Origin: Psammoneis japonica
Taxonomy: Eukaryota
Length of the DNA: 64,000 bases
Direction of reading: 5' to 3'
Assembly: GCA_008632985.1 (NCBI GenBank)
Contig: QPGO01000103.1
Span: 186,001-250,000 of the forward strand
Position numbers and translations under genes: made by a program. The notes beneath the pieces are model-generated. The model saw only the letters and a list, made by a program, of their open reading frames with translations. It searched no databases and was not told where the DNA came from. Of the stretch, positions 1,461-32,100 are shown piece by piece; position 1 is the first letter of the stretch, and each line of letters opens with the position of its first letter.

Positions 1461-4300
1461 AATGTTCCCTGGCAGCCACAATCGCCTGCTGAAAGTCGGC
1501 GCTGTGGTCAGGCTGGTTGACAGCCACCAATTGTGCCTCGATTTGCAATGCCAACTGCAGGACCCTTTCTCTTGCCACGGCTTCTTCGTCCATGGCCCGG
1601 ATCGCGGTCCATGTCCCTCCCCGCATTTGATCTGTGCCTGGCCACAGATCATGCAAAGCTTGCCACTGTTGCTGCAAGGCAACGTCTTTCCTTCTCAAAT
1701 CGTCAGGGCCCCTGGAGCAACGTGATTGCAGCCTTCAGGACGCGCAGCGGCTGTGTTAGATGTCGCCTTCGAAGGAGTGGCACGGCATGGCGGTGGATGG
1801 ATTTGTTGATGCTGTTGATTGCAGATTGCTCCCTCTCCACTGCTCTGTTGGCGTCTGTGTCAGAATTTGCCCTGAGGCTTCTCAGAAGCAACGTCGAGTC
1901 ACAGCTGTGCAGCATGTGCAGCCTTGACTCTGATTTTTGATGTCCCGCAATGGAGATTGGGAGCCCCAATTCTTTTGCGTCAAATGCGTCACCGTGAAGA
2001 AAGCGTTGGAAACTCATTTCCGCTTCGCTGCAATTTTCCACTGCAACAATGTGGTCGTTGTCTGAATGGTGTGTCTCGATCGATGACGTAATCAACTGCG
2101 CATGGATGTGCTTAAATTCGCGAGTGGTTGTTGCTGGATTTAACAAAGCACTGTCAAGTGCGGTCGTTGCAGCCACAGTGGCACAATGGGCTTCTGCCAT
2201 TGCTTCTGCCGATCTTGACACAGCAGCCTTTGCATCCTTTGCTCTCTGTTCCTCCGAACAACGAGCAGCGTCAGCGTGAACAAAACCACCAACTGTCTCC
2301 ATCATCTGGCGACGGAAATCTGAGCAGCAGACAGACAGAGTTCATCTGACATGGTTTTCTTCCAATGCTCTGATTGTTGTGGTCGTGGGTCTGCCATTGC
2401 ATTCACCAGATTGGTCGTGCATCAGTCACAAAATTCTGGTTTCTGTGGAAACACACCAGAGTGGTGCGTGGGAGAAGTTGCATGCGCGCCTGGTGGGATT
2501 TGGAGTTTTGTGCACAAAAACCTGCCAGACGCACATGCAACTTCTCCCAGAGAAATCCTGCGTGAGATTGTGCCGGGAAAGGGCAATGCGGAGTGCAGAA
2601 TTGATGGAAGAAAACATTGTGGAACAGCATCAGGAGAAAGGGTGCATGCACTGGAAAACAACATGGATTTCTACACACGAGTTGAGGTGCGTGAAGAACA
2701 CGTGGGTGCCTTCAATTGACACATGCGAACAATCACAAAGAAACATTCGGAAATGGGGACAGCATGGAGAGAAGTCAGAAACATGGGTCCAAAACAAAGT
2801 CACACACGATGAAGGCGACGGTGACGGGATCAATGAAAAAGAAGGATTTGGATGGAAAGACGCCGGAGACGGTGAAAACAGGCGGCGCCAAGACGAAGAA
2901 GGAAGAGAAAAATGGGGCGGGAAAAATGAAGAAAGAGAAAAAGAAGCAGATGACACGACGTCAAGAGGGGAGCAGCGATGCGATTCTGCGTTTCGAGGGA
3001 CCTCTTCCTCTCGATGATGTTCACCCAAATGCAAGAAATGCAGTGTGGCTTTTTTGGAACGGTGACGAGGAAACATCCAACGCGGCAGCGGCACACATGT
3101 TTGAAATTCTTGCAAGAGAGCGGACAAGACACATGGAATGAAGAGGACGATGCGGACGAACAGGCCAATTGGAGCACAGTTGTTGGTTGAACAATTGGTG
3201 CACACTTTACATGATGAAAATTTCATTGCATGCAATTGCAATGTTTGGCTTGTCGCCAAAGATCGTTGGCAGTTGTGAAAAAGGCTGAGCATGAAAATTA
3301 AAAAGCACCTGTGTTCAAACATGAAGAACAGAAGGAGATTAACAATCAACCAAATGACAAAAACCATCATGTGCAGACAAGTAGATTTTATAATGTGGCA
3401 ATGTGTTTTTGTCATGTGTGCAGACATTGCGACATCGTGCACTCTGATGAAGACTCAGCACTTTGCCGAAGCAATGCATTGTCTTGAAAAGTGCTTGGCT
3501 TTCTTGTCCAGCAAGCACAGCATTGTTTTGGATGGATTGATGTTGATGCTGGTGTTGACCAACTTTGCTTTGCCAATGCTTGTGCCATTCTCCACTGTCA
3601 TCTTGCAGGGCATTGCATCAACCTGTTCTTGCTTTGGCATTGACAACATGCTTGGCTGCCAATTTGGATGGTGCCACTGAGTTGTGCCGCCAGGCACTCA
3701 GTCAAAAGCCGGACAATCAGCTCAGACATGTTGAATCGTGCCTTGGAGGAAGCCTTGTCATCCATTTTGGTTCAAGACCAGACAGTGGCAGACATTGTGG
3801 AACCGCCGACTCCTCCGGAGCCGTCCTTTGTGTCACCACCACCCAACCGGCCTAGCTGGGACAAGACAAAGTGTCCGTCGACAACAACAACTGCAGCAGC
3901 AACAATGAGCCCCATCATCGAATGATAACTTGACCTTTGCCAGTGGCGAAGTCGACATGAGCATGCCGTGAGAATTAAAAAGAACAGATCAAATTTTTAG
4001 TGCAATTATGCACTCCTTTGCCAGCAGTGCCGGCGCCGGCTAACCCACACTTCCAGTGCACTTAATACAAATAAGCGCGGCAGAAGAGCATGACGGATGT
4101 GGGTGGATTGCGTTAGATGTTTAAAAGACAACTCTGTTTCATCCATTCAGTTTGCTGCTACAGAATGTCGTGGTTGATTTGCTTCTTTCTCTATCGCGTT
4201 CAGACCCCACTGAATTACTTGCATCCATGGCCTGTGAATGCTGATATTGTTTGTGACTCAAGTCTGTCGTCGTTCCAGATGTGACGGTAAATCACAGTCT

Positions 4301-6007
4301 CTAGCCACCGCAACCGCCTCCGCCGCAACCACCACCACCACAACCGCCGCCACCACATCCTCCTCCACCACCGCATCCACCGGATCCGCATCCTCCAGCA
4401 CCACACGCCCCGCCAAGGCCGGCCGTGTCTGCACCGCATCCACCACCAGCATCAAACACCATCGCAGGAAACAGCCACACACCGTCATCCGTATAATAGT
4501 CTCTTCGCTCAAGTCTTTTCCCACTGGTCGGCTCCGATGTCAAGTTCTCCGGTATGCCAACAACACCCAAAGGAACAGCTGCCTCACTGCGAGCCTTTAC
4601 GAGAGTTTCCAATGCCTGCAGTTCCGCCAATTCGTTTCTTAATTCCTCTTTTGTTTCGATTGCTGATGGGCATCCGAAGCATGCCAAACACCCATAGCAG
4701 CTAATCTCGCTTGCCAGTTCTTCCTTGCGTCCTTGAATGCGACGAAGCAAAATCTGGTACGACTCGCGAGTTGTTGTGTGGTAGTATCCATTGCCCTTTG
4801 GACCCTTGCCGAAAATGTAGCACGCCTTTTGTGGATTGGCATTTTCACCGGAAGTTTTGGATTTGGGCAGCGCCTTAATAAACGGAGGCTGTCCATCGGG
4901 ACATGAAGAAGCATCGAGTGGCGTCCATTGGGTTGCTCCACAAAACGGAGCTTGTTGGGGTTGTCCTGTGGACGACGCCGCAACCTTGCCAATCAAATGT
5001 GTGTATGGACCCGTTGGTGCATCGTTTTTTTCCAACTTGTACATGTCAAAGTACGACTCCGGAGGCTCCCCTCTATACATGCCTCCCTCAATTCTGTACT
5101 CGAGCCCATACATGGTTGTCCACAGCGCTTCTGTTTTCTTGTATGCGCGATTCAAGATGGAATTCTGTGACCGGTCAGTGAGAGAGTCGTCATGGTGTAA
5201 TGTCTGCCCAATTATGGAGATACAATCATCATTGTAATTGTGTAGCGAAGCCAGCATATGAGTGTGCCACATTAAATCAATCTGATATGTAGGCACAATG
5301 ATTTGGTTCTTGCCCTTCTCCGTTCCCTTCAGGCAAAGGAATCGATAATAGTTGAGAACACCCTGCCGAAGGAAGTCCACATCGCTGAAACGAGGACTCG
5401 AAACTTGCCACAGAAACGTGGACTGACGCTCGGCCGATTCCAACACGTCGAAGTCATTCAGAATTCCATCTGTCTTTTCTGCTTCAAGTTTCTCATCCAT
5501 GCAATCAACTCTTCTTTCGTCAAGAAAGAAAGGTTCTGTTGGATACAACTCCTTCCACAAATATTGTGCAGCTGTTTCTGGAGGAATAAGATCTTTCTCT
5601 GGAGTATCTGGATGCTGCAATGAAAACGGAGGGACCGCTTCAAAGGGTTGCTCAGCGTGGAAACGATCACGAATATGCCTTGCATACCGCATAGGAGCTA
5701 GACGGTGGCAATGCCAGAGCCAGGCTACATCCAGAGGCGGTACTAGTCCGACGTCGTTCTTGCTTTTCCTGCTATTGTAAACATCCAAGAGAGGGAGCCA
5801 TAAATCTGCATATCGGCGAAAGGATTCGGCAGAGGGACGAATTGTAGAAACGCTAGCCGCATGAACCGTTTGTAGAAACAGAACGTGAAGCTGTGACTGC
5901 GTTACGAGATCGCAAGAAAATTGACGCGCTGCATTTCTGATGGCGTCATCGTCTTCATTCCTTTGACGAGTTGCAGATAACATATAAGAAATGATTTTGG
6001 CGTTCAA
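4301..6007 (-). CDS. Glycine-rich domain protein (GRDP/DUF1399-like); exact start uncertain (first in-frame ATG ~5983)
   Basis: 568-aa ORF with PPLDVAWLWHCHRLAP, VPTYQIDLMWHTH and HDDS motifs and a GCGGGG-repeat C-terminus. Confidence 0.85.
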   Translation of the reverse strand: MNAKIISYMLSATRQRNEDDDAIRNAARQFSCDLVTQSQLHVLFLQTVHAASVSTIRPSAESFRRYADLWLPLLDVYNSRKSKNDVGLVPPLDVAWLWHCHRLAPMRYARHIRDRFHAEQPFEAVPPFSLQHPDTPEKDLIPPETAAQYLWKELYPTEPFFLDERRVDCMDEKLEAEKTDGILNDFDVLESAERQSTFLWQVSSPRFSDVDFLRQGVLNYYRFLCLKGTEKGKNQIIVPTYQIDLMWHTHMLASLHNYNDDCISIIGQTLHHDDSLTDRSQNSILNRAYKKTEALWTTMYGLEYRIEGGMYRGEPPESYFDMYKLEKNDAPTGPYTHLIGKVAASSTGQPQQAPFCGATQWTPLDASSCPDGQPPFIKALPKSKTSGENANPQKACYIFGKGPKGNGYYHTTTRESYQILLRRIQGRKEELASEISCYGCLACFGCPSAIETKEELRNELAELQALETLVKARSEAAVPLGVVGIPENLTSEPTSGKRLERRDYYTDDGVWLFPAMVFDAGGGCGADTAGLGGACGAGGCGSGGCGGGGGCGGGGCGGGGCGGGGCGG

Positions 6008-6297: not shown

Positions 6298-6960
6298 GTC
6301 TAGCAGTGACAGCTACTACTCTCTACCACTAGCTCTAGCTAGAGCAGAGCTGTTCTATCATCATCACGCTCATGCTCACGCACGCACTGCACGAGGAGAG
6401 GATTCATTTGCACCCCCCCCAANAGGCATTCAGATTTAATTCGGTACAAATCTACGCAGCATTTTGCGTAGGGTGCACACGAACCACCAGGTGGTTCGTG
6501 TGCACCCAAAAATGCACACGGACCACCAGGTGGTTCGTGTGCATAAGCAGGGATAAAATCTGTAAGTTTTTATACCGGTAGAACCGAAAATCTGGAATCT
6601 GTGCAACGTCTGTCTTCCCCCCTCTTTAGTACAAATGTACGCAGGGTGTACACAGACCGCGCCGGGCCTACTTTTAACGCGCCGGGCCTGCAGAAGGGTT
6701 CTTCTAAGATCGCAGAATTAGCCGAGTTCCAGCAAAAATCAACCCCAGTTTTCGCCGAATCATTAAAAATTTGTGCTTTTTGAAAATCTGTACTGTTTCT
6801 GCCTATGACTCTGAATCGTCACAGTCCTAGCAGTGACAGTCTAGCATACTGCTCTCTACCACTAGCTCAGCCTAGAGCAGAGCTGTTCTGTCATCATCAT
6901 GCTCATGCTCACGCGCGCACTGCACGAGGAGGATGACTCGTTTGCACCCCCCCCAAAAAA
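6298..6960 (+). repeat. Imperfect ~130-bp direct repeat (~6298-6423 and ~6822-6960) flanking a ~400-bp palindrome-rich insert
   Basis: ctagcagtgacag...ctctctaccactagctc...agagcagagctgttct..catcatca.gctcatgctcacg...tttgcaccccccccaa occurs twice, with a single N at 6423. Confidence 0.75.
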
Positions 6961-8399
6961 AAAGCAAAAAGCTGCCATGCGGTGCAGTGAGGCGACGGGA
7001 ATGGCGGGACCAACTCAGATCTTGGTTTTGAGGTCTCCAAACTGCAGCAGATTTCTGTTCTGCAGTGAGAGAGATCCAGATGTCCTTGAGCAGGGATGAT
7101 GTGAGGTCAGAGTCGGGCGCGAGGGGGGCAGCTCTTGGCACTCAATGAGGGAGAAACAGGCTGCGTCTCTTGGGGTGAAGCCGCCCCATGGAAACGTGAA
7201 ACTTGCTGCAATGTGTCTCTTTCAACAAAGCTCAGAAGAGCTCTGACAAATTCAATCTCACATCACTTGACCTCCATGCACGTGTTCTTCTGACACCATG
7301 CTTTGTCATGGTTTGTGCTGCAGCAAGTGGCAAGAACACACCACTCTGCTGTGTTGGCGTGAGCCAGGAGCTGCATGCTGGCATCACAGCCACTGCAGTT
7401 GCTGCGTGCAGCATTGGGAGGTGAAAACAAAACCCACCATCACCAGGCTGTTTCAATCATGAGAGGGTGATGTGCATGTTTGTTGTGGCTGAAGATGTTG
7501 TCATGCTGTCAAACAACATTGCCTCATCTTTGCTGTGAGCTGTGAACACCATGATGATTTAGGATGTTTCATCACAGTTGTCCCCCAACATGTGGATGCC
7601 ATTGTTGTGGTCACTTGTCACACTTGTCATGGTCTCCTGATTTGGACATTTTGTCCATCTGTGGTTCCGCCATTTCCACCCTCCATGTGCTGTTTTGCAA
7701 GTCCTTGTGATGGCATTTTTGCCAGCTGTGTCCTGCAATGTCAAACTTCCAAAGTGAGGAAGTTGAAGTCCAGAAGTGCACATTGCAAATGCCCATGCAA
7801 GCTTGCACTTGTTCTGGAGTGAGCAACACATTGGTGCCATCAATGGCATCAATTGCAAGCGATCCATGCATGGAGGTCACACAGCAACTGGCCATTGACG
7901 TCACATCTCAGAAGCACAAGGAAGACTGTGTGTGCAAGGCATGTGCTGTGCAGCATTCATTGTCGTGTCCCAAGCTGAACTTGGGGCAATGCTTTTCATT
8001 CATGGATGAACACACTCACGCAGCTGTGTGAAGTGAAAGCAGCAGAAGCTTTCATGCAACACCAAACATTTCTTGGCCAAATGATGAGCCAACACTCAGA
8101 AATGTTCTCACAATTGCAGTCAACCACAATCTGTTAAAATGCTCAAATTTAAGTGCCCACTCGATGCATGATAAGGTGCAGTGATGTGTTGCTCTGGCAT
8201 GTCCAATGAAAAAGCGTGCTCTTGTTCAGACATCATCAAACCCTGCAAGCAATGCTCTCATCATGAAGAAGAGGGTTGCTCCTCCTGCTCCCCACAGCAT
8301 CCTCAGAAGAAGGAGCTGGCCAAAGGCAAGCACCAAATGCACAAGCTGCACATCATGACTGGTGACAAAAACAGTTGAACGCATGAGCTGAGGAGCATG

Positions 8400-8960
8400 C
8401 TGCACTTTGGTGCTGGAATGTGCAAAGAGTGGCCACTCCATGTCCGTGTTTCCAAGTGAGTCATTCTCAGACAAAATGTCATGACAAGGCCAGAAAAGCA
8501 CTTGTTGGCTCACAAGCTGCCAGAGGACAAGGCCATCATCACAATCAATGACAAGGCATCCAAGTGCCCCACCAAGACTAATGCCAATCATGCCAAATGC
8601 ATGAAAGTGGTGGTGGCAAGCATCTTCCCCAGGGTGGCGGCACTTCTCCAGAAATGTTGCTTGCAGTTTTTCTCATGCATGAGGAGCCTGCTGACATGAA
8701 GACTTGGGACTTTGTCACAAGGCCTGTTGAGATCAACAGCCACTCAAAGGAATTTCCTCCTGTTCTGGAAGTTGGAGATGCTCCAAGAACATTGTTGTCA
8801 GACAATGAACTCATTAATTTGCTCAAGTGCCCAGCTCCAAAGTTTGTCTTGTTTTGCAAAAACATTGAGCAAGTTGAAGCTGCCAAAGGTGGATTTCAAA
8901 AAGGTCGCTTCAAAAACCAAGGTGCCAAGGAAGTGGGGCCAAGGCAAAGATGATGCCCAG
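8400..8960 (+). mobile_element. Decayed Ty3/gypsy-type gag fragment
   Basis: PADMKTWDFVTRPVEINSHSKEFPP...LSDNELINLL resembles the diatom gypsy gag motif KP.DM..R.FV.RL.EIN.YL..FPP...LSD.EL. Multiple frameshifts. Confidence 0.6.
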
Positions 8961-10263
8961 AATCACTCATCAAAAATCACAATCACAACTCAAAATCATG
9001 CCTGTTGTGGTGGTGTGAATTGTGGCCATTTGACAGGATTTGAGCAGGATTTGGGTGCGCGCGAAATGTCGCGCACTGTTCAGTTTACCGCGCACAGTTT
9101 TGTGTGCTTTAGTTCCGCGCGTTCGCGCGCGATGTAGTTTGCTTTCGAGCCACAAGGCTCACAAGAATGACAACAGCAGCCCGATTGTGCCGACTTGCAC
9201 GTCTTTTGGCTCCTGTGGTGGTCTCTGAGCGGAGACTCATCTGCTGTTTGGACAGCAGCAAGGAGTTGTTGTTTGAATTCTTGCCATTTGCCTTCAATTT
9301 CTGTCAGATTAACAGTCTTGCTCATTGTCAACCCATTGAGCAACCGCCATCGTCGTCGTTGATTTACCAACGATGCCGCTTCAATTCTGCGTGGACCTCC
9401 GTGCATGTTCTGCATGCATCGGCAAGTCTGCACGCATTCAACACCAGGGCATCGGCAGGAAGTTAACATCACCGTCAAGTCTCCTTGCCGCTGGACATCT
9501 GGATTGATTGTGCTGCCTTTGGTTGCTGAAGACATGCATTCAACGGTCACACCCAAGTCTGTCCTTGATCCTCATCCCTTGATGTGCCTGTTCATCGGTC
9601 AACGGTCAAGAACCCTGCATGTTCAAGGATCTTCGTCGCTGAAGACACATGCATGTGTGCACATCTTCACGGCCAAGAACCTGTGCCCACTCTTCGGACT
9701 GCGGTTTTGCTGCCACTCTGCGAGCACACCGAGTCCATTGCACCTGATCTGCCCCGGACCACTGGTGCTCTGCAGTTCCACTGGGTCCACGAGGATGACT
9801 GTGAGAGCAAAGCAGCCGTGATTGCAGCCTGCGTTGGGGCGAGGGTGCTTTCCCGTGTTTGTTCGTTCGTCCACAGTGCCCAACGCCTACGTCAACTGGC
9901 CAGCCTGATCGGGAAATCCAACCGACATAAAACAAGAACGGTTTGGGGGTCTTGTCCACCTCTGGTCAGCTTGCCTGCAGGGGTTTGCAACCCGCTGCTC
10001 TGCTCGTAAGCAACCCAAAGCGCCGCCAGCTGCGGGTTCGGACGTGCCGGCACAACTCTACGGACCGGATGGGAAGTTTAGCACTTGACAACGAACGGGA
10101 CAGCACAGCCCGGCGACTTCTGATTTTAAGATGGTCCAAGATTTCAAGTCAAGTCTAGCTCAAGTCAAGTCTTTTTCAAGCCAAGTTCCAAGTCAAAACT
10201 CCGAGTCAAGATCGCGCTCTAGATTGGTTCCTGTCTTTTGTTTCTGCTGCACCGTCCTCCGTC

Positions 10264-12297
10264 ATGGTTCTCACGCGACAGCAACAAACCGAAAGCTTCA
10301 AATACATTCTGTGCACTGTGCTCAATCAAGACGATGACAGCCCTTTTCGTTCTGCCCTGTCCATCAACGGGATTGAATCGTGCGAGGAATTGTTCACGTT
10401 CTTGCCCACCCAAATTGATGCCCTCACTTACAGAGACGGCGCCAATGTAGTGCCTTTGCCACGGACCCACAGAAACCTCCTAGCAGCTTTGATCAGCTTC
10501 TGCTTTGTCAAAGTTTGCAATGGTGATGATGTGACCAATGAACCCCAGTTGCTCACACCCGAGGAATTTCGCAACTACCGCCTTGGTCCAGACTACTTGG
10601 CCTCTCTAGCCACTGGCGCAGCACCCTCCGCACCTGTGCCGAGTCCCTTGCCATCCAAACCAGATGAACCCAGTGCCATTTTGACACCAGCCTTGCACTG
10701 TGCCGCCACTCAGGTGTCCCCTGGAAGTGGTGTCAGTCACGCCCCGCATGTCTTGACCAACCCGCCTGCAAGCAACCTCGGCCCAGTGCAGGATTGCAGC
10801 CCTTGCACAGGCCCACACTTCGAGACCAGTTGGGACACTCCACCCATGGCTTCCAAAGCTGCAGTCTTTGCACCCCGCAAACCACGTGCTGCCAACCTCC
10901 ACGTGTCGACTTCTGTCGCTGTCACCCTTCACAGTCTTCGTTTGGGAAGTGATGGAGGTGACAACTTGCTTCTCGCATCTCCTGATGGGGAGCCTCCTTT
11001 TCCCGTCATTGAATCTGTTCACAACAGTTCAACCGGTTCATCAGATGGGGAGTTCAGGACATCCAAGCAGCTTCGTTGTCTTTGGATGCCCCAAGTCTCG
11101 TGCCTTGAGACCAGGCCTCCTGATTGGATGCCTCAAGTCTCGCACCTCGAGACCAGGCCTCCTGATTGGATGCCCCAAGTCTCGCACCTCGAGACTGGGC
11201 CTCCTGATTGGATGCCCCAAGTCTTGTACCTCGAGACTGGGCCTCCTGATTGGATGCCTCAAGTCTCGTACCTCGAGACTGGCAGGATGCCCCAAGTCTC
11301 GTACCTCGAGACCAGGTCTCCTGATTGGATGTCCCAAGTCTCGCACCTCGAGACTGGGCCTCCTGATTGGATGCCTCAAGTCTCGTGCCTCGAGACTGGG
11401 CCTCCTGATTGGATGCCCCAAGTCTCGTACCTTGAGACCAGGTCTCCTGATTGGATGTCCCAAGTCTCGCACCTCGAGACTGGGCCTCCTGATTGGATGC
11501 CTCAAGTCTCGTGCCTCGAGACTGGGCCTCCTGATTGGATGCCCCAAGTGTCGTACATCGAGACTGGGCCTCCTGATCGGATGCCCCAAGTCTCGTGCCT
11601 TGGGACCAGGCCTCCCAACTGGACTCTCCACGTCTCGTGCCTCAAGACCGGGCCTCCCAATTGGATCCTCCACATCTCATACCTCAAGACTCGGCCTCCG
11701 GATTGGATCCCTCAAGTCTTGCACCACGAGACTCGGCCTCCTGATTGGATCCCCCAAGTCTCGCACCTCAAGACTTGGCCTCCTGATTGGATCCCCGAAG
11801 ACTCGTGTCACAACACTGGCAAGTCCTTTTGGATCCCAGAAGTCTTGCAGCACGGGACTGGTTGCCCCAATCAGACATCTGCAGCCTTGCACCACAAGAT
11901 GTCTTGCTCCAATCCGATCCCCAAAGGCTTGCACCTTGAGACTCGTTTCTCCAATTGGATCAGTCTCTCAGGAGATGCAGTTGGATTGGTGGAACACAAG
12001 ACCACCGCTTGTGCCTTTGAACTGATGCTTGCTCTGTTCCCCGAGTCATGCAAACGCCATGCCGCCTGCAATGTTGCCCCACCGTTCAACATTGTCAACC
12101 AGACCAAGCTTTGCTCCTTCCATTGCAAGCGCGGATGTGGAATCCCACAAGATCCCAAGTGTGCCTTGAGCTTTGAAAAGCACAACGGCATCTGCAATTG
12201 GGGAGACGCAGCTCATCTCAAGATGACCCACTTGGAGAATGCAACGTTGCTCTTGGATCTTGATCCTTTCTTGTCTCCTCATGTTTTGGTGCTTTGA
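10264..12297 (+). CDS. Gag-like N-terminus fused to a 14-aa tandem repeat region (ORF of the LTR element)
   Basis: MVLTRQQQTESFKYILCTVL...LTPEEFRNYR resembles diatom copia gag N-termini and is followed by (ETGPPDWMPQVS[Y/H/C]L)n. No protease, integrase or RT motifs. Confidence 0.6.
   Translation: MVLTRQQQTESFKYILCTVLNQDDDSPFRSALSINGIESCEELFTFLPTQIDALTYRDGANVVPLPRTHRNLLAALISFCFVKVCNGDDVTNEPQLLTPEEFRNYRLGPDYLASLATGAAPSAPVPSPLPSKPDEPSAILTPALHCAATQVSPGSGVSHAPHVLTNPPASNLGPVQDCSPCTGPHFETSWDTPPMASKAAVFAPRKPRAANLHVSTSVAVTLHSLRLGSDGGDNLLLASPDGEPPFPVIESVHNSSTGSSDGEFRTSKQLRCLWMPQVSCLETRPPDWMPQVSHLETRPPDWMPQVSHLETGPPDWMPQVLYLETGPPDWMPQVSYLETGRMPQVSYLETRSPDWMSQVSHLETGPPDWMPQVSCLETGPPDWMPQVSYLETRSPDWMSQVSHLETGPPDWMPQVSCLETGPPDWMPQVSYIETGPPDRMPQVSCLGTRPPNWTLHVSCLKTGPPNWILHISYLKTRPPDWIPQVLHHETRPPDWIPQVSHLKTWPPDWIPEDSCHNTGKSFWIPEVLQHGTGCPNQTSAALHHKMSCSNPIPKGLHLETRFSNWISLSGDAVGLVEHKTTACAFELMLALFPESCKRHAACNVAPPFNIVNQTKLCSFHCKRGCGIPQDPKCALSFEKHNGICNWGDAAHLKMTHLENATLLLDLDPFLSPHVLVL
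11083..11960 (+). repeat. 42-bp tandem array, roughly 16-20 units, degenerating toward the 3' end
   Basis: Unit tggatgccccaagtctcgtacctcgagactgggcctcctgat is repeated head to tail without spacers. Confidence 0.95.
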
Positions 12298-13049
12298 CTC
12301 CAAAGTTCTTTAGTCAATCCGAAGTCGAATCTGTTTCTGTGGCTCCTCAAGCAAACTGGGGAGTGACAGGATTTGAACAGGATTTGGGTGCGCGCGAAAT
12401 GTCGCGCGCTGTTTAGTTTGCCGTGCACAGTTTTGTGTGCTTTAGTTCCGCGCGTTCGCGCGCGATGTAGTTTGCTTTCGAGCCACAAGGCTCACAAGAA
12501 CAATGACAGTAGCCCGATTGTGCCAACTTGCACGTCTTTCGGCTCCTGCAACGGTCTCTGAGCAGAGACTCATCTGCCATTTAGACAGCAGCAAGGAGTC
12601 ATTGTTTGAATTCTTGCCATTTGCCTTCAATTTCTGTCACCATTTGACCAATGAGTGCCAAACTCTGCAGCATCCAGCCAAGTTTGTGAAGGCTTTGCAT
12701 CCATCCATGACCAAAAAGAAAAATGATGAAGAGGAGCTGAACACCATCACGTCAACCAAGTGGTCAAGAAAGTGCTCAAGAGTGAGAAACCAAAGTCCAC
12801 TCACCTGGTTTGCTGTCAAACAATGACTTGCATTTCTTTAGAATCTGAAGCAATTTTTCCTGTTGAAAATTGTCAAGAATTTTTTGTGTTTTTGACCAGT
12901 GACAGCAAATCTGCCATGCAACATTTCACCACCATGAAGACAGTCAAGACTCTCACACTGTTGCTTTTTAACTGCTCAGACTCCTCAACATGAAAAGAGT
13001 CATTGGATGTGATGTCCAGATGTTGCTTTGGAATTGTTCCCCATTTTCT

Positions 13050-13440
13050 TGAGGTTGTTGCTCAACAGTCTGACACAAAAAAACGTGGGTCAACACCTGG
13101 ATTTTCTAGAGTGACTCGGCCAATTGTCACACTGCAGATGCCCCATCTGCCCTCATTCAAGCAGACTTCAGATTCAATTGTGGCTGTCTGAGACATCTCC
13201 AGAAGCCTCAAGTTGACTGGGCAATGCTTGCTTGTCTTGAGCGCTCCTGCTGCAACAGTTCCCTGGCTTGATGAGGCTGAATTTTCTCTTGGAGTTTCAG
13301 GCCACGGTGAGCATCAACTGGTGTGCCACGTGCTCCACTGTCAAACAATGCTTTTAGAACATTTTTTTGCATTTGCTGTGCATGGATTTCAAGGCTGGAA
13401 ACAATGGCAGTGCAACATGCTTGAGGTTTTGCCATTTTCT
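13050..13440 (-). mobile_element. Decayed gypsy-type aspartic protease fragment
   Basis: LKALFDSGARGT (D-S-G active site), followed downstream by SVTIGRVTLENPGVD, which resembles YD.IIGRD.L..LG.D. Confidence 0.55.
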
Positions 13441-14521
13441 GGGTTGGCCTGCAGCATGAGTTCCAGAGAATTGAAGAGTGGGCACTGGCGGCATTGAGAA
13501 ATTTGTCGGTGGTGAACCACCAAAATCATCAGGACATCAGGACTGTCATGCCAGCTTCTTTCTCAGACCATGTGCAGTGCCCTTCATCTTTGCTGTCAGA
13601 ATCCTCTGAAAGCACCAGTGTCTTGAATTGACTCGACTCTTCCTCACGAATCTTGCGCTTTGGTTTTGCAGCAGAAGCTGGCCATCAGCACTGCACCTCA
13701 GATGCGTGTGCATGTGCGAGGCATGTGCTCAACAGCATTTGTTGCATCCCAAGCTGAACTTGGAGCAGTGCTTTTCATTTGCAGATGAACATGTTTGTGC
13801 ATTTCTCAGCCAGCCAAGCGAGCCAACAAGCTGGCAATGTGTTCTCACAGTTGACAGTTGCAGCCAATCGTGTCCTGATGAACTGCCTCAAAATTCAGCT
13901 GCCTGCTTGCAGCATGTGAGGCACCGCACCCCACCACCAGCATCATTGGCAGCAAGGTTGGACAGGTTGAGTCATGCAAAATGAGACTCCAGCATGTCAA
14001 AGCCATGCCAAAAGTTGTGCGCTGATTCAGCCTTTCATGAAAGCTGAAAAAGTGCCTGTTCTTTTGCCAAAGATGGTGGTCAGCACCAGCCACACTGGCA
14101 ACTCCCCCAGAACATTTCTTTTCAGAGTGCTAGAAAGACCCAAGAAAAGCTGCCATTTGAGATGTGCCAAGCTTTGTGTCTGTTTTTTTTGCAGCTTTCG
14201 CCAGGTGGTGTGCACCCCGCACTTCTTTGCCGGCCATGCTTGTCACAGCAGCGCAGGAGCTGGCCAAAAAATGTGATTGCTGTGGCCATTGTCTTGCACC
14301 TGCTGCTGCAGTCATGATTTGCAGCAAGAAAAGCTTGTTGCAACAACCGTCTTCAATGCGCGCAATGACTCGGCGGAGATTGGAGATGCCAGCGTGATGG
14401 AGTGGTCAGCGCCCTTCCCCATCTGTTCATGTGGCAGGAGGTTTTCACCCACAAGGAACAAGCTGCTGCCAGCCCACTCTTTTTTTCCTCCTCAGCACTG
14501 TGCTGTGTGCTGGCAATGAGC

Positions 14522-14543
14522 AGAGAGAGAGAGAGAGAGAGAG
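14522..14543 (+). repeat. (AG)n microsatellite
   Basis: Run of agagag... Confidence 0.9.
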
Positions 14544-15245
14544 CTTGCTGCTTGGTGGTGCGCAACCCTTGTGGCTCTCTTGCAGGAGCATCGTCGCCTC
14601 TGGGCTCCCCACCACTTGCAAGCTCCAGCTCGAGGTCTGGTTTTTCGTGGCTCACGCTGCAGGGCTGTGGCCACAAGTGAGGAGAAGGCAGCGAGCAGAA
14701 GGCAGCGAGCGACAGAGAGCCATCGTCTTGTGATTGCCAATTTTTGTCAACAGCTTCGACCTTTGTTGCTGCTTCATCCCATTAATCATGTGTTCAATCT
14801 TTACTATTTATAAAAACGCACAGTAAATAAATAATGAGCACGTGCTGTCCTTTAATAAAAATAAAAAGGATTAAATGTCAATATACGAGGAATTAATTAG
14901 GAATATCAAAATTTGTAATGACCAGAGTTTTCTTGAATCATGTTTTCGCATATGCTTACCTTCATCATCGAACATGAGGAAATATACACATTGAAGAGGC
15001 GGAGAAAAGAGACAGTGAACACCAACATGCGATAATAGCTGCTGCTTCGCGTTGTTGCTTGATGCGTTTTACATCGCGGTTTACAACAGGAAAAGGGAAC
15101 GAAACGAGCTCTGCAGTAACTACTTTCACGTCTTTCTTAGGCCTTCTTTGACTATTAGACCAATCTGCTTTCAATCGCATTGAGTTTCAGGGCTTTTCTC
15201 CCTCATCCGCATCGTTCGACTGACTAACAACAGCCACATAGGCTG

Positions 15246-16454
15246 ATGACTCAACTGCTGGACTTTGCTGTCGTAACCATTTTTGCCCGGGAGGTTCTGG
15301 AGGGGGCAATCATTATTGGTCAATACCGAACTATTATTCTAAGAACTGATACATTCCCATCGAGGGCCGCTAAGGACGCCGCGCTACGTGCCACAACAAT
15401 TGCGGCTATTCTTGCCTCCATATTTGCGGTTGCTGTATGCGCTTGCGTGGCAATTCCTCTTTCCGTTTTGTCCAGTGATTTTGACGATCGTACTTCTAAA
15501 GTGATTGAGGGAGTGTCAAAGATTGTGGCTGCTGTTTGCATCCTGCAGCTGTCTCTGAAATTCCCCAAGTGGCTTGGTGTTTATGCATCAAAAAAGAGCT
15601 TGGGTAACGAAACATCGCTTGAAGGACTCTCTCTGGCATCAATTCGTTTCAATGTTGCGTGGAATATTTGGAGAGAAGTCGCAGAGTGTGGAATCTTTCT
15701 TATTCCCTTCTTTCTCAGTGGTGAAGGTGTCACAGCAATTCCCCTTAGTGCGGTGATTGGATCGGTTGTTGGACTTCTACTAGGATTGATGATTTACTGC
15801 GCCAACAAGAAGCTAAGAGACAAGACGGGCTTAGCCATTTTTGCAACGATTCTTCTTCTGTTTGTTTCTACAGGACTTTTCACCGGGGGATGTCATAACC
15901 TGGAAAAGGTTTTTGGCATGACCAACAACGTATGGAAGTTGAATGGGGAGTTCTGGAGTGTGGATCGGTTACCAATGACCGTCCTCAAACCTTTCGGCTA
16001 CTCCGATAGTCGAACGGTCCTTCAGATCTGCTGCTTTTGGTTGTGGCTATTCTTTGGATTCGTCCTTCACTTTTTAAAGTGGCGGCAGTCGCAAAGGATA
16101 TTCGCCAAGTTGGCCCAAGATGAACAAGACGCATTAGCAGCGACTGATGAGGACGAAGAGGCTGCTATCCGAGAAACAGACTCTGGAAAGGACGAAGAAG
16201 CATTGACGTCTACTACTGCTAATCTTTCTAGAGCGTCTTCCTCGGCTATCCAAGAGTCCGATGATGACAAGGACGAAGAAGCGCAGACGTCTACTACTGC
16301 TAATCTTTCGAGAGATTCTTCTTCCTCGGAAGAACCCCCCTCCTCACGCTCCGATGATGGAATCGAGAATGGACAATCTCCGCGACATAACAAGGAGCTT
16401 TCTCTGGTGGAAGAGGAAAATATCGAGGTCAACGATATCGAGCAACAAGTGTAA
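15246..16454 (+). CDS. FTR1: High-affinity iron permease, FTR1 family
   Basis: Two RExxE motifs (FAREVLEG, WREVAEC), about 7 hydrophobic segments, and an acidic tail with an internal duplication (KDEEA.TSTTANLSR.SSS twice). Confidence 0.9.
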   Translation: MTQLLDFAVVTIFAREVLEGAIIIGQYRTIILRTDTFPSRAAKDAALRATTIAAILASIFAVAVCACVAIPLSVLSSDFDDRTSKVIEGVSKIVAAVCILQLSLKFPKWLGVYASKKSLGNETSLEGLSLASIRFNVAWNIWREVAECGIFLIPFFLSGEGVTAIPLSAVIGSVVGLLLGLMIYCANKKLRDKTGLAIFATILLLFVSTGLFTGGCHNLEKVFGMTNNVWKLNGEFWSVDRLPMTVLKPFGYSDSRTVLQICCFWLWLFFGFVLHFLKWRQSQRIFAKLAQDEQDALAATDEDEEAAIRETDSGKDEEALTSTTANLSRASSSAIQESDDDKDEEAQTSTTANLSRDSSSSEEPPSSRSDDGIENGQSPRHNKELSLVEEENIEVNDIEQQV

Positions 16455-21200: not shown

Positions 21201-22110
21201 AAATTGTCTCTGCATGGTGGCAGCATTGCTTTCAACTTGAGTGGGTGTTTGTGGTGTTTGCAGAAGACTCAAGAGAGCTTGGTTGCTGCATGGCAGAGCA
21301 TGGTGATCACAGCAGCCACTGGGAGCCAGAAAGCTGTGTGTCAGGCAGTGCATCCAGAGAAATCAAGCAACAACATCTCAGGTCTCACAGGGAAGTTGGA
21401 ACATGGGGTTGTGCAAAATGCATCATCTTGTGAGAATTTTGTAACCCTGCACCATGGCATGCATGTTCAACATTGTTCAATGGACTTTTGGACACTCAAG
21501 ATTTGTTTTCTGCACAGCAGCACAGTGCCTGTTTGCATGCAGAAGATGGCAAATTCTGTGATTCAATGATCGTCGAGGAAGCCCACAGATGATTTGTGAT
21601 TCAAGAATCTTGTCAACTTGCTCTGAGTGAATGACAAGAACACAAAGGGCTTTCTGGCTGAAGAGCAATGAAAAAAAAAACTGGGTGGAATCAAGAGGAA
21701 CACACTGCCATGGACTGGGTCTTCAGAGGGGGGTTGAGAATCAGAAGAGGAGAGAGTCAGCTCCATGGCATCACCCACATCAAGGTGTGCTTCCCACAAT
21801 TTCCATGTTTGGAAAAGTTGGCAAAGAATGGCAAATCATTTGGTCACAGGCCGAACCATGGAAGTGCTTTGTGGATCAACCACCACCGCTTGGGCAAGGA
21901 CCACGAGAGGGCATCTGGGACAAAAGTTTCCAAATTTTGCCTACAGTCCTGGTCCGAATCACACCGATGGATGCAGAAAAAGGAGACGCAGATCCCAACA
22001 CCTCACTCTTGCCTGGAACTTGACAGGCACACCCAAATAACAACTAGGGGTCTACTCAATTGGGTCTTTCTTCGGATACAGTCCTCACAGCTACAAAGCA
22101 GATCTAACTG

Positions 22111-24041: not shown

Positions 24042-24358
24042 TGTTGACTCTGCTTTTGCGTTGGTGTAGAACACAAATAATAATGCGAATTGGAACTGAT
24101 GTGGAATTTGACATCTTAGATCCTAAAGATTTATTTATTATTGCCACGTGGTAAAGTCGTTAAGTGTAAAAAGGACTTTTAGTTATATAAAAATAGTGAT
24201 CGGCAGGCGACATAAAGGTGCGACATAGAATATTTAACAGAAAAATACCTTCAACATGGACCGTTTAAAATTTTTTATGCATTCACGAGAGCAAAGGAAA
24301 AGACCCAGAAAATTACTCGGACGACGTAGTACAGTACAGTAGCAATTATGGTAACACC

Positions 24359-26277
24359 ATGGCGGCGAAAACCTCTCTCCTCCTTCTTCTGGATGGCATA
24401 TTGTCGCAAGCAGATGATCAGATTCGAGATGCTTTGACCCAAATTATGGACAATATCGAAAGAAACGAAGCAGTGGTTTCACCACAGGCAAAATCCATCG
24501 TTATGAGTTTTGACCCGGCTGCCGTCGGAGTTGGTGGTTCGCTTTCCAATCTTCCTGATGTAGTCAGAGTACTGTTGGAAGCTGACCCTCAAACAGCATC
24601 TACTCCTAGTGACCTGGATGGATCTCTACCTCTTCACTTTGCTGCCTCACTGGGTGATGTGCGGGTAGCTTCTATTTTGATAGCAAAGGTAAGTACTTTT
24701 CTGAAGCTGTATTTGAGTCTCCACAGCGTAGTTCGCGTCGGACAAACACACGCTGTCTTACGCCACACTTGTAGTACCCCCGAGCTACATCAACCCCAAA
24801 TAACAAGGGTAAGTTGGCCCTTCACTACGCCGCTCGGGAAGGCCGGGACGAAATGGTATCCTACTTGCTTCGAGTTGATCCAGCCACCGCCAGGATGGAT
24901 TCATGCAAAAACAAGCTACCCCTTCATTTTGCCGCTGGAGAAGGATATGTCCATGTCGTGCGTCATTTGCTTCACGCTTATCCAGAGGGCGCATCCGTTC
25001 CGAGCTCCAAGGGTAAAATGCCTCTTCACTTTGCTGCTCGTTGGGGGCACATTCAGATTGCAAAGGATTTGCTTGCCTTGTACCCCGACGGAGTAAAGGC
25101 TCTGGACTGGGAAGGTTCTCTTCCTCTTCATGATGCGGCACGAGAAGGCCAAACCGCGATGGCTGAGCTGCTGGTGGAGCGCTATTGTCAGGGCTTGAGT
25201 ACGGCAAACCTAAGAGGCGAGATTCCGTTGTTTCCTGCTGTACGGAGTAACAATGTCGAATTGGTTGTCTCCTTGCTACAGGCGTGGCCCAGGGGAGGCA
25301 AGCAAATTTTGGCCAGTGCTTCTGCGGATGACAACGTTGAGAATTGGGATAACAATATCCTGGAGTTGTGCCTGCGGGGAGCGGTAGGAAATTTCTACAA
25401 TTGTTCAATTGGTGGAAGAAAACTGGCTCCCGCCCTCTGCCACTGCGGCCAAGTTTTTACTTCATCTTCTCGGCAGCATGTCAATGGCGACAATGCTTCG
25501 GATGGACCTTGTCAGTGCCACAGTGAGAACAAATTGAAGGTAGTTGGCGTCGGCGAGAACTCTGTAAGAGCTTATGCAGCAGGTGACACCTACGCACCTC
25601 ACGTGTTGGATGAAAAGAAGCCATCTGCTGATGAAAGGGTGGTTCCGGATGTTGCACACCTACCTGATGATTCACTTGTCCTGATTCGACGTTCCAAGTC
25701 TCCAATGCTTGAGTTGAAGACAAGCAAAAAGAGAGGTTTATCAACGGACAGTGGAGGAAAGAAACGATTGCGTTCCGGAAGCCTTTCTGGCACGTCCAGT
25801 GTTGCGCTAAGGTTGCAGGAGTTACCCCGCGAATTCTATCATCTCCATGCCGCAATCGAATGTGGCGCTACCTCTCACGTCCTCCGGTGCGTACTACAGA
25901 GGCATGCAAGCCTAGTTACCAAGGTTGATTGCTTTGGACAGCTGCCTCTTCATATTGCTGCCGCTCATAGCCGCGATCCAGAAGTGATTGACGTTGTCTT
26001 GGAGGAGATATTGCGAGTATATCCACAGGCTACCTATATACGCAACCACTTTCGTCAGTTGCCATTGCACGTTGCTCTCTGTTCCAATGCAGACTTTCGG
26101 CTTATAGAAGCCCTGGTTAAGGCCAATCCATCATCGGGTTTCGAACGTTGCCGGACGAACGATAAGTTCATTGACTCGCTACCACTGCAAATGGCAACCG
26201 AATCCGGTTGTGATCTTAGCACTACCTATCTTTTGCTCCGTGGCGACCCCAATTTTGTTCAGAAATTTGTTGGCTGA
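24359..26277 (+). CDS. Ankyrin-repeat protein, intron 24689-24774
   Basis: Multiple G.LPLH.AA repeats. The GTAAGT...TGTAG intron joins ...ILIAK to YPRATSTPNNKGKLALHYAAREG in frame. Confidence 0.9.
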
Positions 26278-26635
26278 CCCCCGGGGGGGAGGGCTACACC
26301 TGGCTACATTGGTTCGTCTTCGAGTGAATATTTAACGCTAGTAGCTACTGCTATGCATGATATTCATTTAGGCGATTGCGTCACTAGAGGTGGTCACGTT
26401 ACATACAAAAGCACTGTTACCGGTAGAGTTTCTTTGTTTGGCAGCCCCGCCGTAATGAAAGGTTTCCTCGGTTAGGCGGTCAGTCCCCGGCGAGTTTCTT
26501 TCTGACTGCTGATGCTGCTCCTCCTCCTTTTTGACTGCCCCACTTACGACGTCCTATGCTGAAAGGGCCGGATGAGTTACGGCATGTGTGACAGCTGGGC
26601 ATGTGTGGATGCGTGGTTAAAAGCTCCCCTGTTTC

Positions 26636-26742
26636 CGACGTCATGTTACAACAGTGTCTTTTGTGGGTTTCCCCGAAAGAACTCATTTCTGTCATGTTGC
26701 AACAGCGTCTTTTTGGGGGGGTTTCCCTGGAACTCATTTCTA
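26636..26742 (+). repeat. ~52-bp tandem duplication
   Basis: gtcatgtt(a/g)caacag.gtctttt...gggtttccc...gaactcatttct occurs twice. Confidence 0.75.
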
Positions 26743-27796: not shown

Positions 27797-29240
27797 CTGT
27801 GGCAAAACTGCTCTCCTTCTTCTTTTGGACAGCAGATGACAAAAATTCAAGATGCCTTAACCCAGATTGTTGCCCCAAGAAAGAAATGGGTGGCAGTGTT
27901 GCCACAGACAAAATTCATTCTTGTCACATGAGTTTTGAGCCAGCTGCCTTCATCTGAATTGTGGGTTTGCTCTCCAATCTTCTTCCTGATGTGATGCAGC
28001 CAGTTCATTGTTGGAGGCTGGCCCTCAGCCAAGCTGCATCCTGCCCCAGTGCCCTGAGTCAATCTCCACCTTTTTGCTTTGCTGCCTCACTTGGTGACAT
28101 GTGGGCAGCTTTCATTTGAGAGAAAAGGCAAGCACTTGTTCTGAAGCTGTGTTTGAGTCTCCACAGCACAGTTCATGCCCAACAAATGCACTTTGTCTCA
28201 CTTCACACTTTCTCATCACTCCTGAGCTGCATCAACCCCTTCACTGCACCACTCATGAAGGCCATGATGAAATGGCACCTTGCTTGCTTTGAGTTGATCC
28301 AGCCACTGCCATGTTGGATTCTCATGCAAAAAGCAAGTTGCCCCTTCATTTTGCTGCTGGAGAAGGAAGCCTCAATCTTGTGCATGATCATTTGCTCAGT
28401 GCTTGTTGAGAGGGTGGTGCATCCACTCTGAGCTCCATGGGCAAACTGCCTCTTTATTTTCTCTGCTCATTGGGGCAAATTTGCAGATTGCAGAGGATTT
28501 TCTCACCTTTTGCCCCATCTGAGCAAATGCCCTGGACTGGGGAGGCTCTCTTGTCTTCCTCGTGCTGTTTTGCACACTGAGCAGATGATTTGTGTGTTCT
28601 GATCTGTTGTTCAAAGCCTCCATCCCTTGAGCCAAAGATGGCTGAGCAACAAAAGAGGTTTGTCATGAGATGGTCAAAGAAAGAAATGGCTGCATTCTGG
28701 CTGCCTTTCTGGCTCTTCCCGTGTTGTGGTGCTGAGGTTAGAGAAGCAGCAGCCTTGCAAATTCAAGTCATCTTTGTGCCACTGCCAAACATGGTGCAAC
28801 CTCTCATGTGCTCTGCTGCACATTGCAGAGGTGTCCAAGCCAAGTTGCTGATGTTGATTGCTTTGGAGGACAGCTTCTGCCGCTTCACATTGCAGCCACT
28901 TGCAGCTGTGGCACAAAAGTGCTGGTTGCCGTTGTTTCAGAGGAGACACTGCAAGAGAGCGCACAGGCCACCAGCAGTGCACTTTGCTTGCTCTCATGCT
29001 GCAATGCAAACTTTTGGCTTGTTGCAGAAGTCCTGGAAAAGGCCAGCCCACATTGTCTGGTTTCAAGTGTTGTTGGACAAATGTCCCGCCACTGCAAATG
29101 ATGGCTTTGCCAAATGTGGTTGTAAGATCTCTTGGCACTGCCTGTCATTTTTCTCTGTGGTGGCCCCCACATTTTGTTCAGAAGTTTGTCAGCTGATCCT
29201 CATGAAAAAAAAAAACAGCTGCACCTGGCTGTGATGGCTT
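27797..29240 (+). pseudogene. Heavily mutated copy of the ankyrin gene at 24359-26277
   Basis: Colinear similarity from the 5' end (gcaaaactgctctccttcttctt) through the intron to the 3' end (tttgttcagaagtttg), with internal deletions. TpA and CpG are converted to CpA/TpG and the donor GTAAGT has become GCAAGC. Confidence 0.88.
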
Positions 29241-30943: not shown

Positions 30944-30955
30944 TTAGTTAGCAGC

Positions 30956-31990
30956 ATGGTGGCGAAAACCCCTCTCCTCCTTCTTCTGGATGGCATATTG
31001 TCACAAGCAGATGATCAGATTCGAGATACGTTTACCCAGATTATGGACAGCATCAAAAGAAACGAAGCAGTGGCTTCACCACAGGCAAAATCCATCTTTA
31101 TGAGTTTTGACCCGGCTGCTGTCGAAATTGGTGGTTCGCTTTCCGACCTTCCTGATGTAGTCAGAGTACTGTTGGAAGCTGACCCTCGAACAGCATCTAC
31201 TCCTAGTGACGTGGATGGATCTCTACCTCTTCACTTTGCTGCCTCACTTGGTGATGTGCGGGTAGCTTCTATTTTGATAGAAAAGGTAAACACTTTTTCT
31301 GAAGCTGTATTTGAGTCTCCACGGCGTAGTTCGCGTCGGACAAACACACGCTGTCTTACGCCACACTTTTAGTAACCCCCGAGCTACATTAAACCCAAAT
31401 AACAAGGGTAATTTGGCTCTTCACTACGCCGCTCGGGAAGGCCGGAATGAAATGGTATCCTACTTGCTTCAGATTGACTGCCTCTTCACATTGCGGCCGC
31501 TCATAGCCGCGATCCAAAAGTGATTGACGTTGTGTTGGAGGAGATATTGCGAGTATATCCACAGGCTACCAAAGTACGCAACCACTTTCATCAGTTGCCA
31601 CAGCACGTTGCTCTCTGTTCCAATGCAGACTTCCGGCTTATAGAAGCCCTGGTAAAGGCCAACCCGTCTTCGGGTTTCGAACGTTGCCGGACAAACGATG
31701 AGTTCATTGACTCGCTACACTGCGAATGGCTACCGAATCCGGTTGTGATCTTAGCACTACCTATCTTTTGCTCCGTGGCGACACCAATTTTGTTCAGAGT
31801 TTGTTGGCTGACCCTCGGAGAGTGAATGTTTAAAGCTAGTAGCTACAGCTATATATGGTATTCATTCAGGCGATTGCGGTCATGTTACATTAACGCTATT
31901 ACCGGTACTTTTTTTGCTTGGCAGCCCGCGGTAATGAAAGGTTTCTTTTGTTAGGCGTTCCGTCCCCAACGAGTTTCTTTGTGACTGCTA
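30956..31990 (+). pseudogene. Second, near-identical but internally deleted copy of the ankyrin gene, including its 3' flank
   Basis: MVAKTPLLLLLDGILSQADDQIRD matches 24359. The junction near 31470 joins sequence equivalent to ~24875 with ~25940. Frameshifts present; TpA sites retained. Confidence 0.88.
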
Positions 31991-32100
31991 TTACGACTCC
32001 TCCTTTTTGACTACCCCACTTTGCGTTCAACGCAAATCAAAGGAACCGATGAGCGACAGCAGACCAAAAGGAAACGTCCTCATACGGTACCGAATGCGAC

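Follow-up and report, generated by a model that had tools for sequence, protein, structure and literature searches.

Loss of TpA steps after insertion, with slower CpG decay, as the probable source of the differences between the long terminal repeats of a retrotransposon in the diatom Psammoneis japonica

If the two long terminal repeats (LTRs) of a retrotransposon are identical at insertion, each difference between them found later raises the question of when, and by which process, it arose. Here this question is posed by an LTR retrotransposon of 3,609 bp (9031-12639) in the diatom Psammoneis japonica, lying in a stretch of 64,000 nucleotides, hereafter the window, that corresponds to positions 186,001 to 250,000 of contig QPGO01000103.1 (assembly GCA_008632985.1, forward strand). 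The element has direct terminal repeats of 276 nt each, with TG..CA ends and 92.0% identity, and is non-autonomous, because its sole long frame carries neither reverse transcriptase nor integrase. An initial annotation of the locus had claimed that the mismatches between the LTRs fall almost entirely at TA and CG sites, that they arose in chromosomal DNA after insertion and not by RNA editing, and that LTR dating would be inflated in this genome. We conclude, with a probability of about 0.85, that the differences were made by a process acting after insertion and restricted to particular blocks of DNA, which changes TpA to TpG or CpA with a preference for 5'-TAY-3', accompanied by a slower decay of CpG.

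The two LTRs were aligned as the initial annotation had proposed (9031-9306 with 12364-12639), giving 276 ungapped columns with 22 mismatches and no indels. All 22 mismatches are transitions, which would have a probability of 1.3e-4 were two thirds of changes transitions, and 20 of them lie in pyrimidine-purine (YpR) steps, which cover 144 of the 276 positions (hypergeometric P=7.6e-5). Four steps have TA in one LTR and CA or TG in the other (columns 51, 57, 147 and 220), six have CG against CA or TG (columns 45, 61, 162, 177, 189 and 201), and at five reciprocal pairs TG faces CA (columns 138-9, 141-2, 186-7, 215-6 and 237-8). The placement of the mismatches given by the initial annotation is borne out, its eight quoted dinucleotide examples being all present as written and its "several" TG/CA pairs amounting to these five; it had not included the CG/TG sites at columns 61 and 189, nor columns 14 and 188, the only two mismatches outside YpR steps. 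The unchanged members of the 72 YpR steps of the pair are TG in both LTRs (22), CA in both (17), CG in both (16) and TA in both (2). Read on the + strand, the TA-type changes are seven A>G and seven T>C, and both products, TG and CA, are present in each LTR. In composition the LTRs have CG near expectation (19 against 17-18) and are depleted in TA (3-5 against 15-17).

This depletion extends well beyond the LTRs. TA occurs every 10-30 nt through position 6873 and again from 14783 on, and the TA-purged block between these positions, which holds the element, has edges sharp to a few bases. Within it the flanks of the element are purged as well, with 6 TA against 137 expected on the left and 5 against 111 on the right. 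The block lies between a GRDP-like gene (4301-5983, - strand) and an FTR1-like gene (15246-16454, + strand), which are divergently placed, and the upstream regions of both are spared. Together with the other blocks (Table 1), purged DNA amounts to about 27.7 kb of the 64 kb (~42%); in it TA stands at 0.02-0.1 of expectation, TG+CA at 1.8-2.0 and CG, in places, at 0.06-0.25, with G+C near 50%. TA gaps have a median of 15 nt, and the longest TA-free one measures 1,272 nt; genes keep TA at 0.5-0.8 of expectation. The purged blocks contain the LTR element, a MULE transposase remnant and a dead copy of an ankyrin gene. The TA and CG processes have different footprints, because 14199-14782 has normal CG and no TA at all; the loss of CG is the less sharply bounded of the two. 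Inside the element TA is uneven, with none in 9464-9888, 10607-11227 and 11680-12311 and 16 in 9888-10607.

Purging also changes the coding appearance of the DNA. Per 1000 codons, TAA falls from 9.8 in unpurged to 1.4 in purged DNA and TAG from 9.5 to 0.9, and open runs of at least 100 codons number 4.2 per kb in purged blocks against 2.07 in genic DNA. A Pfam family, the MULE transposase, was found in one of the 18 frames tested out of 27 listed purged-block frames of at least 150 codons, and the long frames of these blocks are probably spurious open reading frames that gene predictors would call. By the same token, the intact 677-codon frame of the element is no evidence of selection, since purging removes TA, which two of the three stop codons contain. 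The MULE domain (E=3e-7) belongs to a 593-codon frame at 60329-62107 (+ strand), in the largest purged block, and marks a purged remnant of a DNA transposon. Near it lies a tandem array of 111-nt units (62190-62663, 4.3 units, 90%), in which 18 of 21 variable columns are transitions, 16 of them at YpR; several columns hold CG, TG and CA together, indicating CpG decay in both directions inside a purged block.

The direction of change was examined with likelihood models fitted to the 72 YpR steps of the LTR pair, with ancestral frequencies free. The model in which both TA and CG change to TG or CA has a log-likelihood (logL) of -139.69, against -144.27 for cytosine deamination only and -140.05 for A>G only, and a model with four free rates converges on the first of these, both reverse rates being 0. 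Ancestral numbers estimated in this way are about 14 for TA and about 23 for CG, with losses per LTR of 72% and 16%, respectively, and a rate ratio of 7.3; under it, a reciprocal TG/CA pair has a posterior of 0.86-0.93 for TA ancestry.

A polarity control exists in the window itself, in the form of three copies of an ankyrin-repeat gene (Table 1). Copies A and C still encode ankyrin repeats and their coding state is the older one, so that it is copy B that has lost its TA and CG. None of the 47 TA steps of copy A that align to copy B is kept there (16 are now TG, 18 CA, 1 CG and 12 other), and only 1 of 66 CG steps is kept, 30 being now TG and 21 CA. The control comparison between A and C, both unpurged, finds 43 of 52 TA and 42 of 56 CG kept; at the positions where A and C agree, copy B keeps 0 of 28 TA and 1 of 34 CG.

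Relatives of the element point the same way. In a public sequencing run of the same organism (run X1), 6,074 contig pieces match the stretch compared at no less than 80% likeness, most densely on the LTRs, which makes the family an abundant one; the summed contig depths are not convertible to a copy number. The family varies in this run at 166 transition and 11 transversion places, plus indels, and the LTR pair shows neither indel nor transversion. Comparison with the relatives was made at the 29 best-supported variant places listed within the element, out of the 177 in the run, and 26 of these 29 are at YpR steps. Among the listed places, this copy carries TG or CA opposite a TA of the relatives at 16, and the converse is seen at 1 (sign test 2.7e-4), the share of TA among relatives ranging from 0.11 to 0.93 at those 16, which lie within the 9412-9720 region; for CG in the family the corresponding counts are 5 and 2. 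At one site of the LTR itself, 12525, the family has G at 96% of depth, so that a CpG>CpA change took place in the 3' LTR. The initial annotation had taken TA and CG as starting states. For TA the pair alone is insufficient, and the claim is supported by the likelihood, the ankyrin paralogues, the family relatives and the flank rule described next; for CG, decay is a separate component, about 7-fold slower, whose starting state is confirmed at 12525.

Which TA steps are lost depends on their neighbours. Purged blocks retain 110 TA steps. Counted in strand-symmetrised form, A precedes 5.5% of them, compared with 26.2% of the TA steps of unpurged DNA (chi-square p=6e-13), and YTAR makes up 46 of the 110 against 269 of 1,514. 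Copy B offers 34 polarised TA conversions, 23 of them informative in that just one of the two strands carries a pyrimidine next to the A, and in 19 of the 23 the change is on the strand where A is followed by a pyrimidine (p=0.0026); the base after the edited A is C in 18, T in 9, G in 5 and A in 2, and a CpG control for strand choice gives 10 of 21. Among the listed family sites, all 13 TG outcomes in the leader precede a pyrimidine, and the rule holds at each of the 6 sites that are informative. Across the window, the share of TGC among TG is higher in purged than in unpurged DNA (31.8% and 26.0%), and so is that of GCA among CA (30.2% and 24.1%). In the LTR pair, 17 of the 22 shared TG precede a pyrimidine and 11 of the 17 shared CA follow a purine, contexts that suggest hidden parallel changes, in which case the ancestral TA number may be nearer 27 than 14 and the loss per LTR above 72%. 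An A before or a T after the step is found in 4 of the 5 reciprocal pairs, against 0 of the 6 sites changed once or never (Fisher p=0.015).

The time of the changes is set by the empty site. A contig of run X1 (1,241 nt, depth 57.6) joins position 9025 to position 12640; it omits 3,614 nt, that is the element and one copy of the target-site duplication, and retains a single CCATT. The identity of the two duplications bordering the element implies one insertion event, and the existence of the empty-site contig implies that the insertion is polymorphic in this organism, despite 8% divergence between its LTRs. Compared with the window, the contig differs at 15 of 526 letters to the left of the insertion (8500-9025) and at 1 of 418 to the right (12640-13057). 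The 11 flank differences listed for it include three CA/TG pairs (6 of the 11) and one TA against CA, so that the TA-type process has been active on the empty and filled forms since they split. The differences between the LTRs arose after insertion, because the element has one shared duplication and a matching empty site, its LTRs differ by no indels or transversions and each contains both products, and DNA that is not a retroelement has changed alike; the timing in the initial annotation is supported on all these grounds.

The age of the element is affected directly. Over all sites the LTRs diverge by 8.0% (Kimura two-parameter distance 0.087), and over non-YpR positions, with 2 differences in 132, by 1.5%, lower by a factor of 5.3. 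Estimated indirectly from this pair, the TA-type rate is about 84-fold above background, with a range of 23-700. LTR-based ages are therefore inflated in this genome, as had been predicted: the 8.0% seen here stands against 1.5%, and it greatly exceeds the divergence of 0.24% between the flanks of the filled and empty forms.

Several observations weigh against this reading of the pair. Direct polarity is available for 1 of the 22 LTR sites (12525) among the listed variant places, and two listed family sites run in the opposite direction, namely 9889 (TA here, TG in the family) and 9722 (CG here, CA in the family). The pair alone does not decide between CpG decay and a change of CA or TG to CG (logL -139.69 against -140.05), and the columns with CG, TG and CA in the 111-nt array show that reciprocal pairs can arise from CG too. 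As regards the flank rule, subsets of the strand-choice data are weaker (12 of 16, p=0.077; 14 of 17, p=0.013), and all five reciprocal pairs are at sites with one preferred strand, where discordant outcomes should be a minority (24%); either many parallel changes are hidden, ancestral TA numbering perhaps 14 to 27, or the rule is weaker in this LTR. Strand-coordinated runs of TG or CA, sought as a mark of processive action on one strand, were not significant, whether TA-derived (15 against 17.9 expected, P=0.20), CG-derived (P=0.36) or joint (P=0.15). Finally, in sequence, an attack on A of one strand is indistinguishable from an attack on T of the other.

Other explanations have to be considered against the same data. 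Cytosine deamination alone, as methyl-CpG decay or as a CpA to TpA change resembling repeat-induced point mutation (RIP), could be held to account for all 22 differences, the reciprocal pairs deriving from CG changed in both LTRs. All of them are in fact compatible with C>T or G>A, 16 lying at CpG, 4 at CpA and 2 at other sites; these blocks do undergo CpG decay, given their CG deficit and the single CG in 66 kept in copy B, and the 111-nt array has its three-state columns. The cost is a fit worse by about 97:1, an ancestral LTR with 28.7 CG and 1.9 TA, and strong heterogeneity among sites, 16 CG being intact in both LTRs and 5 changed twice. Moreover, deamination of cytosine cannot remove TA and a RIP-like process would create it, and yet TA is nearly absent from the blocks and wholly so at the 47 steps of copy B; the LTRs have CG at expectation and little TA, and relatives hold TA against TG or CA here by 16 to 1 among the listed places. 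As sole cause it is disfavoured by the likelihood, copy B, the composition of the blocks and the family relatives, and we regard it as very unlikely. There is a slim chance that the two LTRs come from different family members through recombination or gene conversion, so that their differences are inherited diversity of a family that is very abundant and diverse; the same 5-bp duplication is nevertheless found on both flanks, the empty site matches exactly, and where the family shows indels and 11 transversions among 177 places the pair shows none of either among 22.

Errors of base calling or assembly at a modified TA motif deserve mention, since modified bases can give motif-specific base-calling errors on some platforms. 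Separately assembled contigs of run X1 reproduce the purged right flank with 1 of 418 and 0 of 140 letters different, a check that is not independent if that run underlies the assembly; in addition, errors would not turn a single site into TG in one LTR and into CA in the other, nor would they obey a flank rule that the surviving TA steps mirror, and such an artefact is hardly credible. Retroelement RNA is an ADAR substrate in animals, and editing before integration, by an ADAR-type enzyme on element RNA or an APOBEC-type enzyme on cDNA, was also weighed. The adenines favoured by ADAR follow a U, according to work cited in the available text of bioRxiv 10.64898/2026.01.13.699255. Both LTRs are copied from one template, however, and edits of the RNA would be common to both; the TA-type changes divide equally between A>G and T>C on the + strand, without the strand bias of ADAR or APOBEC; DNA with no RNA stage behind it, namely unique flanks and a duplicated host gene, is purged as well; and the purge ends at the edges of the block rather than at those of the element. 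Editing before integration is refuted for the LTR differences, as the initial annotation had held for RNA editing, and has next to no probability as their source, while it may have been an extra source of family diversity. A different matter is whether the same TpA process attacks thymine, by oxidation to 5-hydroxymethyluracil at R-T-A with mispairing or faulty repair, or through error-prone repair synthesis at TpA. TpA is self-complementary and 5'-TAY-3' is 5'-RTA-3' on the other strand, so that the flank rule fits either base; and in dinoflagellates, according to older literature, thymine is preferentially replaced by 5-hydroxymethyluracil at TpA. No sequence evidence opposes this version, and adenine is favoured weakly, by the likeness of TAC to U-A-C and by a proposal made for the alga Bigelowiella natans in the preprint just cited; we judge an attack on thymine unlikely, though clearly less so than any of the preceding explanations.

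According to the explanation that we prefer, post-insertion conversion of TpA with slower CpG decay, a non-autonomous 3.6-kb element of an abundant family would have entered an intergenic block that was already mutated, with identical LTRs. A process acting on DNA, and confined to sharply bounded gene-free blocks, would then have converted TpA to TpG or CpA independently in each LTR, removing about 72% of TA per LTR, possibly more since parallel changes are invisible, turning about 16% of CpG into TpG or CpA, and altering little else (2 of the 22 differences). It would act preferentially on the strand that has a pyrimidine after the A of TA, most of all at TAC, and YTAR steps would survive longest. 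Within this account the timing, the direction, the confinement to blocks, the flank preference and the inflated LTR age are shown by the data above. As for the chemistry, we infer that adenine may be deaminated to inosine in DNA at 5'-TAY-3', possibly by an enzyme similar to the tRNA adenosine deaminases and directed to silenced chromatin; TAC resembles the U-A-C context of tRNA adenosine-34 deaminases. The CpG component would be ordinary decay of methylated cytosine, and diatom methylation is predominantly at CpG, as stated in the available part of PMC5124317.

The closest precedent found in print is a single preprint of 2026 on Bigelowiella natans (Mettrop et al., bioRxiv 10.64898/2026.01.13.699255), and the comparison that follows is with its available text. 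In mutation-accumulation lines of this organism, A>G/T>C changes occur only at TpA in two integrated viral regions (giant virus, virophage), at a rate about 1000-fold above background, and an adenine deaminase is proposed, without proof, as the agent. That text contains no mention of diatoms or retrotransposons, and its main text lacks the words flanking, trinucleotide, CpG and boundary. The two cases share A:T>G:C transitions with TpA as the starting state, regions of foreign or mobile origin, the sparing of genes, and a rate well over background, put at about 1000-fold for B. natans and, by the indirect estimate above, at about 84-fold (23-700) for the diatom. They differ in that B. natans is a rhizarian alga whose integrated viruses were followed in real time, while in the diatom the process is deduced from the composition of blocks and from comparing the LTRs of one element and the copies of one gene; in that whole intergenic blocks are affected here, along with retrotransposons, a dead gene copy and the remnant of a transposase; and in that the present blocks also show slower CpG decay and a flank rule, TAY being changed and YTAR spared.

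Better known systems match in part. Fungal RIP, in Neurospora and others, is likewise transition-only, dinucleotide-specific and exerted on mobile or duplicated DNA, leaving genes alone and ruining coding capacity; unlike the process seen here, which erases TA and leaves G+C near 50%, it acts by C>T changes that fall mostly at CpA, and so produces TpA and enriches the DNA in A and T. The same direction, C>T with enrichment of TpA, is stated for RIP in the discussion of the B. natans preprint, as available. Methyl-CpG decay of silenced transposons explains LTR columns 45, 61, 162, 177, 189 and 201 and the low CG of old blocks, and is consistent with copy B, where the starting state is CG, 1 of 66 is kept and 51 are now TG or CA; unlike the purge of TA, which it does not explain, it has a less sharp footprint. 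Hypermutation of retroelements in animals by ADAR (on RNA) or APOBEC3 (on cDNA) is driven by deaminases, as would be the case here, and ADAR shares the preference for A after U, but those enzymes act before integration and on one strand, whereas the changes reported here followed integration, affect both strands and occur also in DNA that was never reverse-transcribed. A full-text literature search found no description of TpA hypermutation in diatoms; one candidate match, PMC9258296, concerns antibody hypermutation and was discarded.

The anatomy of the element and the positions of the other features are collected in Table 1. No third copy of the 276-nt repeat is found within the window. For the 677-codon frame no Pfam family was detected, and its residues 1-270 have no homologue among proteins of near length, the only lengths searched. 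The frame contains 17.5 copies of a 14-residue unit, approximately PPDWMPQVSxLETG with x alternating between Y, H and C, which belongs to no known family. Column 18 of the corresponding 42-nt array has TA in 5, TG in 4, CA in 4 and CG in 0 of 13 units; the units derive from a 126-nt higher-order repeat and are not independent, and this column was not counted as evidence. A degenerate 25-letter LTR pattern searched against metagenomes gave one match (L001), without similarity to the window, and so yielded no outgroup for the LTRs. On either side of the element an 82-nt segment is repeated (7931-8012 and 13713-13791, 80% identity), the two copies differing by 11 transitions, 9 of them at YpR, and 2 transversions; it is probably part of an older repeat that received the element.

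Table 1. Positions in the window of the element with its parts, the TA-purged blocks and the copies of the ankyrin gene
Feature	Position	Strand	Remarks
Target-site duplication, left copy CCATT	9026..9030	.	letters read; equal to the five after the 3' LTR
5' LTR, 276 nt, TG..CA	9031..9306	+	TA 3 (expected 15.2), CG 19 (expected 18.1)
Internal leader, 957 nt	9307..10263	+	TA 11 vs 50 expected
Open frame, 677 codons, stop TGA	10264..12297	+	TA 13 vs 102 expected
Tandem array of 42-nt (14-aa) units, 17.5 units, within the 677-codon frame	11082..11806	+	
GGGGAG purine run adjoining the 3' LTR, polypurine-tract-like	12358..12363	+	letters read
3' LTR, 276 nt, TG..CA	12364..12639	+	TA 5 (expected 16.6), CG 19 (expected 17.2)
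Target-site duplication, right copy CCATT	12640..12644	.	letters read
TA-purged block holding the element	6874..14782	.	outside the element 11 TA in 4.3 kb
Other purged blocks	327-3852, 18630-21941, 26742-30235, 47103-48436, 55741-63591		
Ankyrin-repeat gene copy A, unpurged, reference state	24352..26545	+	
Ankyrin copy B, purged dead duplicate	27831..29199	+	TA 4 (88 expected), CG 6 (81 expected)
Ankyrin copy C, second unpurged partial copy	30949..32021	+	

The gene content of the window is eukaryotic, with Sec23, an FTR1 permease, the GRDP-like and ankyrin genes and the MULE transposase. Elsewhere in it, two DUF3431 paralogues (34379-35284 and 36730-37680, 80% identity), separated by an assembly gap of about 400 N (36108-36504), differ by an ordinary mix of 90 transitions and 58 transversions, unlike purged DNA. 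Sec23 is spread over two overlapping frames (51142-52413 and 52380-53642, + strand), which indicates an intron or a frameshift between its trunk and its beta-sandwich/helical parts; its named relatives are all diatom proteins, the best at 78% identity.

What this window contributes is an empty-site form of the insertion, a fitted ratio of the TA and CG rates, a polarity control within the same stretch and a test of the flank and strand rule, for a TpA-targeted mechanism known so far from one preprint of 2026 on another lineage. Besides the inflation of LTR ages, there are practical consequences: gene predictors will call false genes in purged DNA, and parallel changes driven by a motif make independent copies seem related by descent and distort repeat phylogenies. 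Tentatively, and at somewhat less than an even chance, a broader reading may be proposed, in which diatoms run an active genome defence by DNA editing: an enzyme derived from a tRNA adenosine deaminase would be guided to silenced chromatin and would deaminate A at 5'-TAY-3', erasing nearly all TpA of a new insertion faster than haplotypes or strains diverge, as a mirror-image counterpart of fungal RIP. Such a defence might be old or widespread in the SAR supergroup, since a rhizarian alga shows the same signature, and the flank rule provides a concrete handle for finding the enzyme. If this is true, a major group of marine primary producers would disarm its mobile DNA by targeted A:T>G:C editing of the chromosome.

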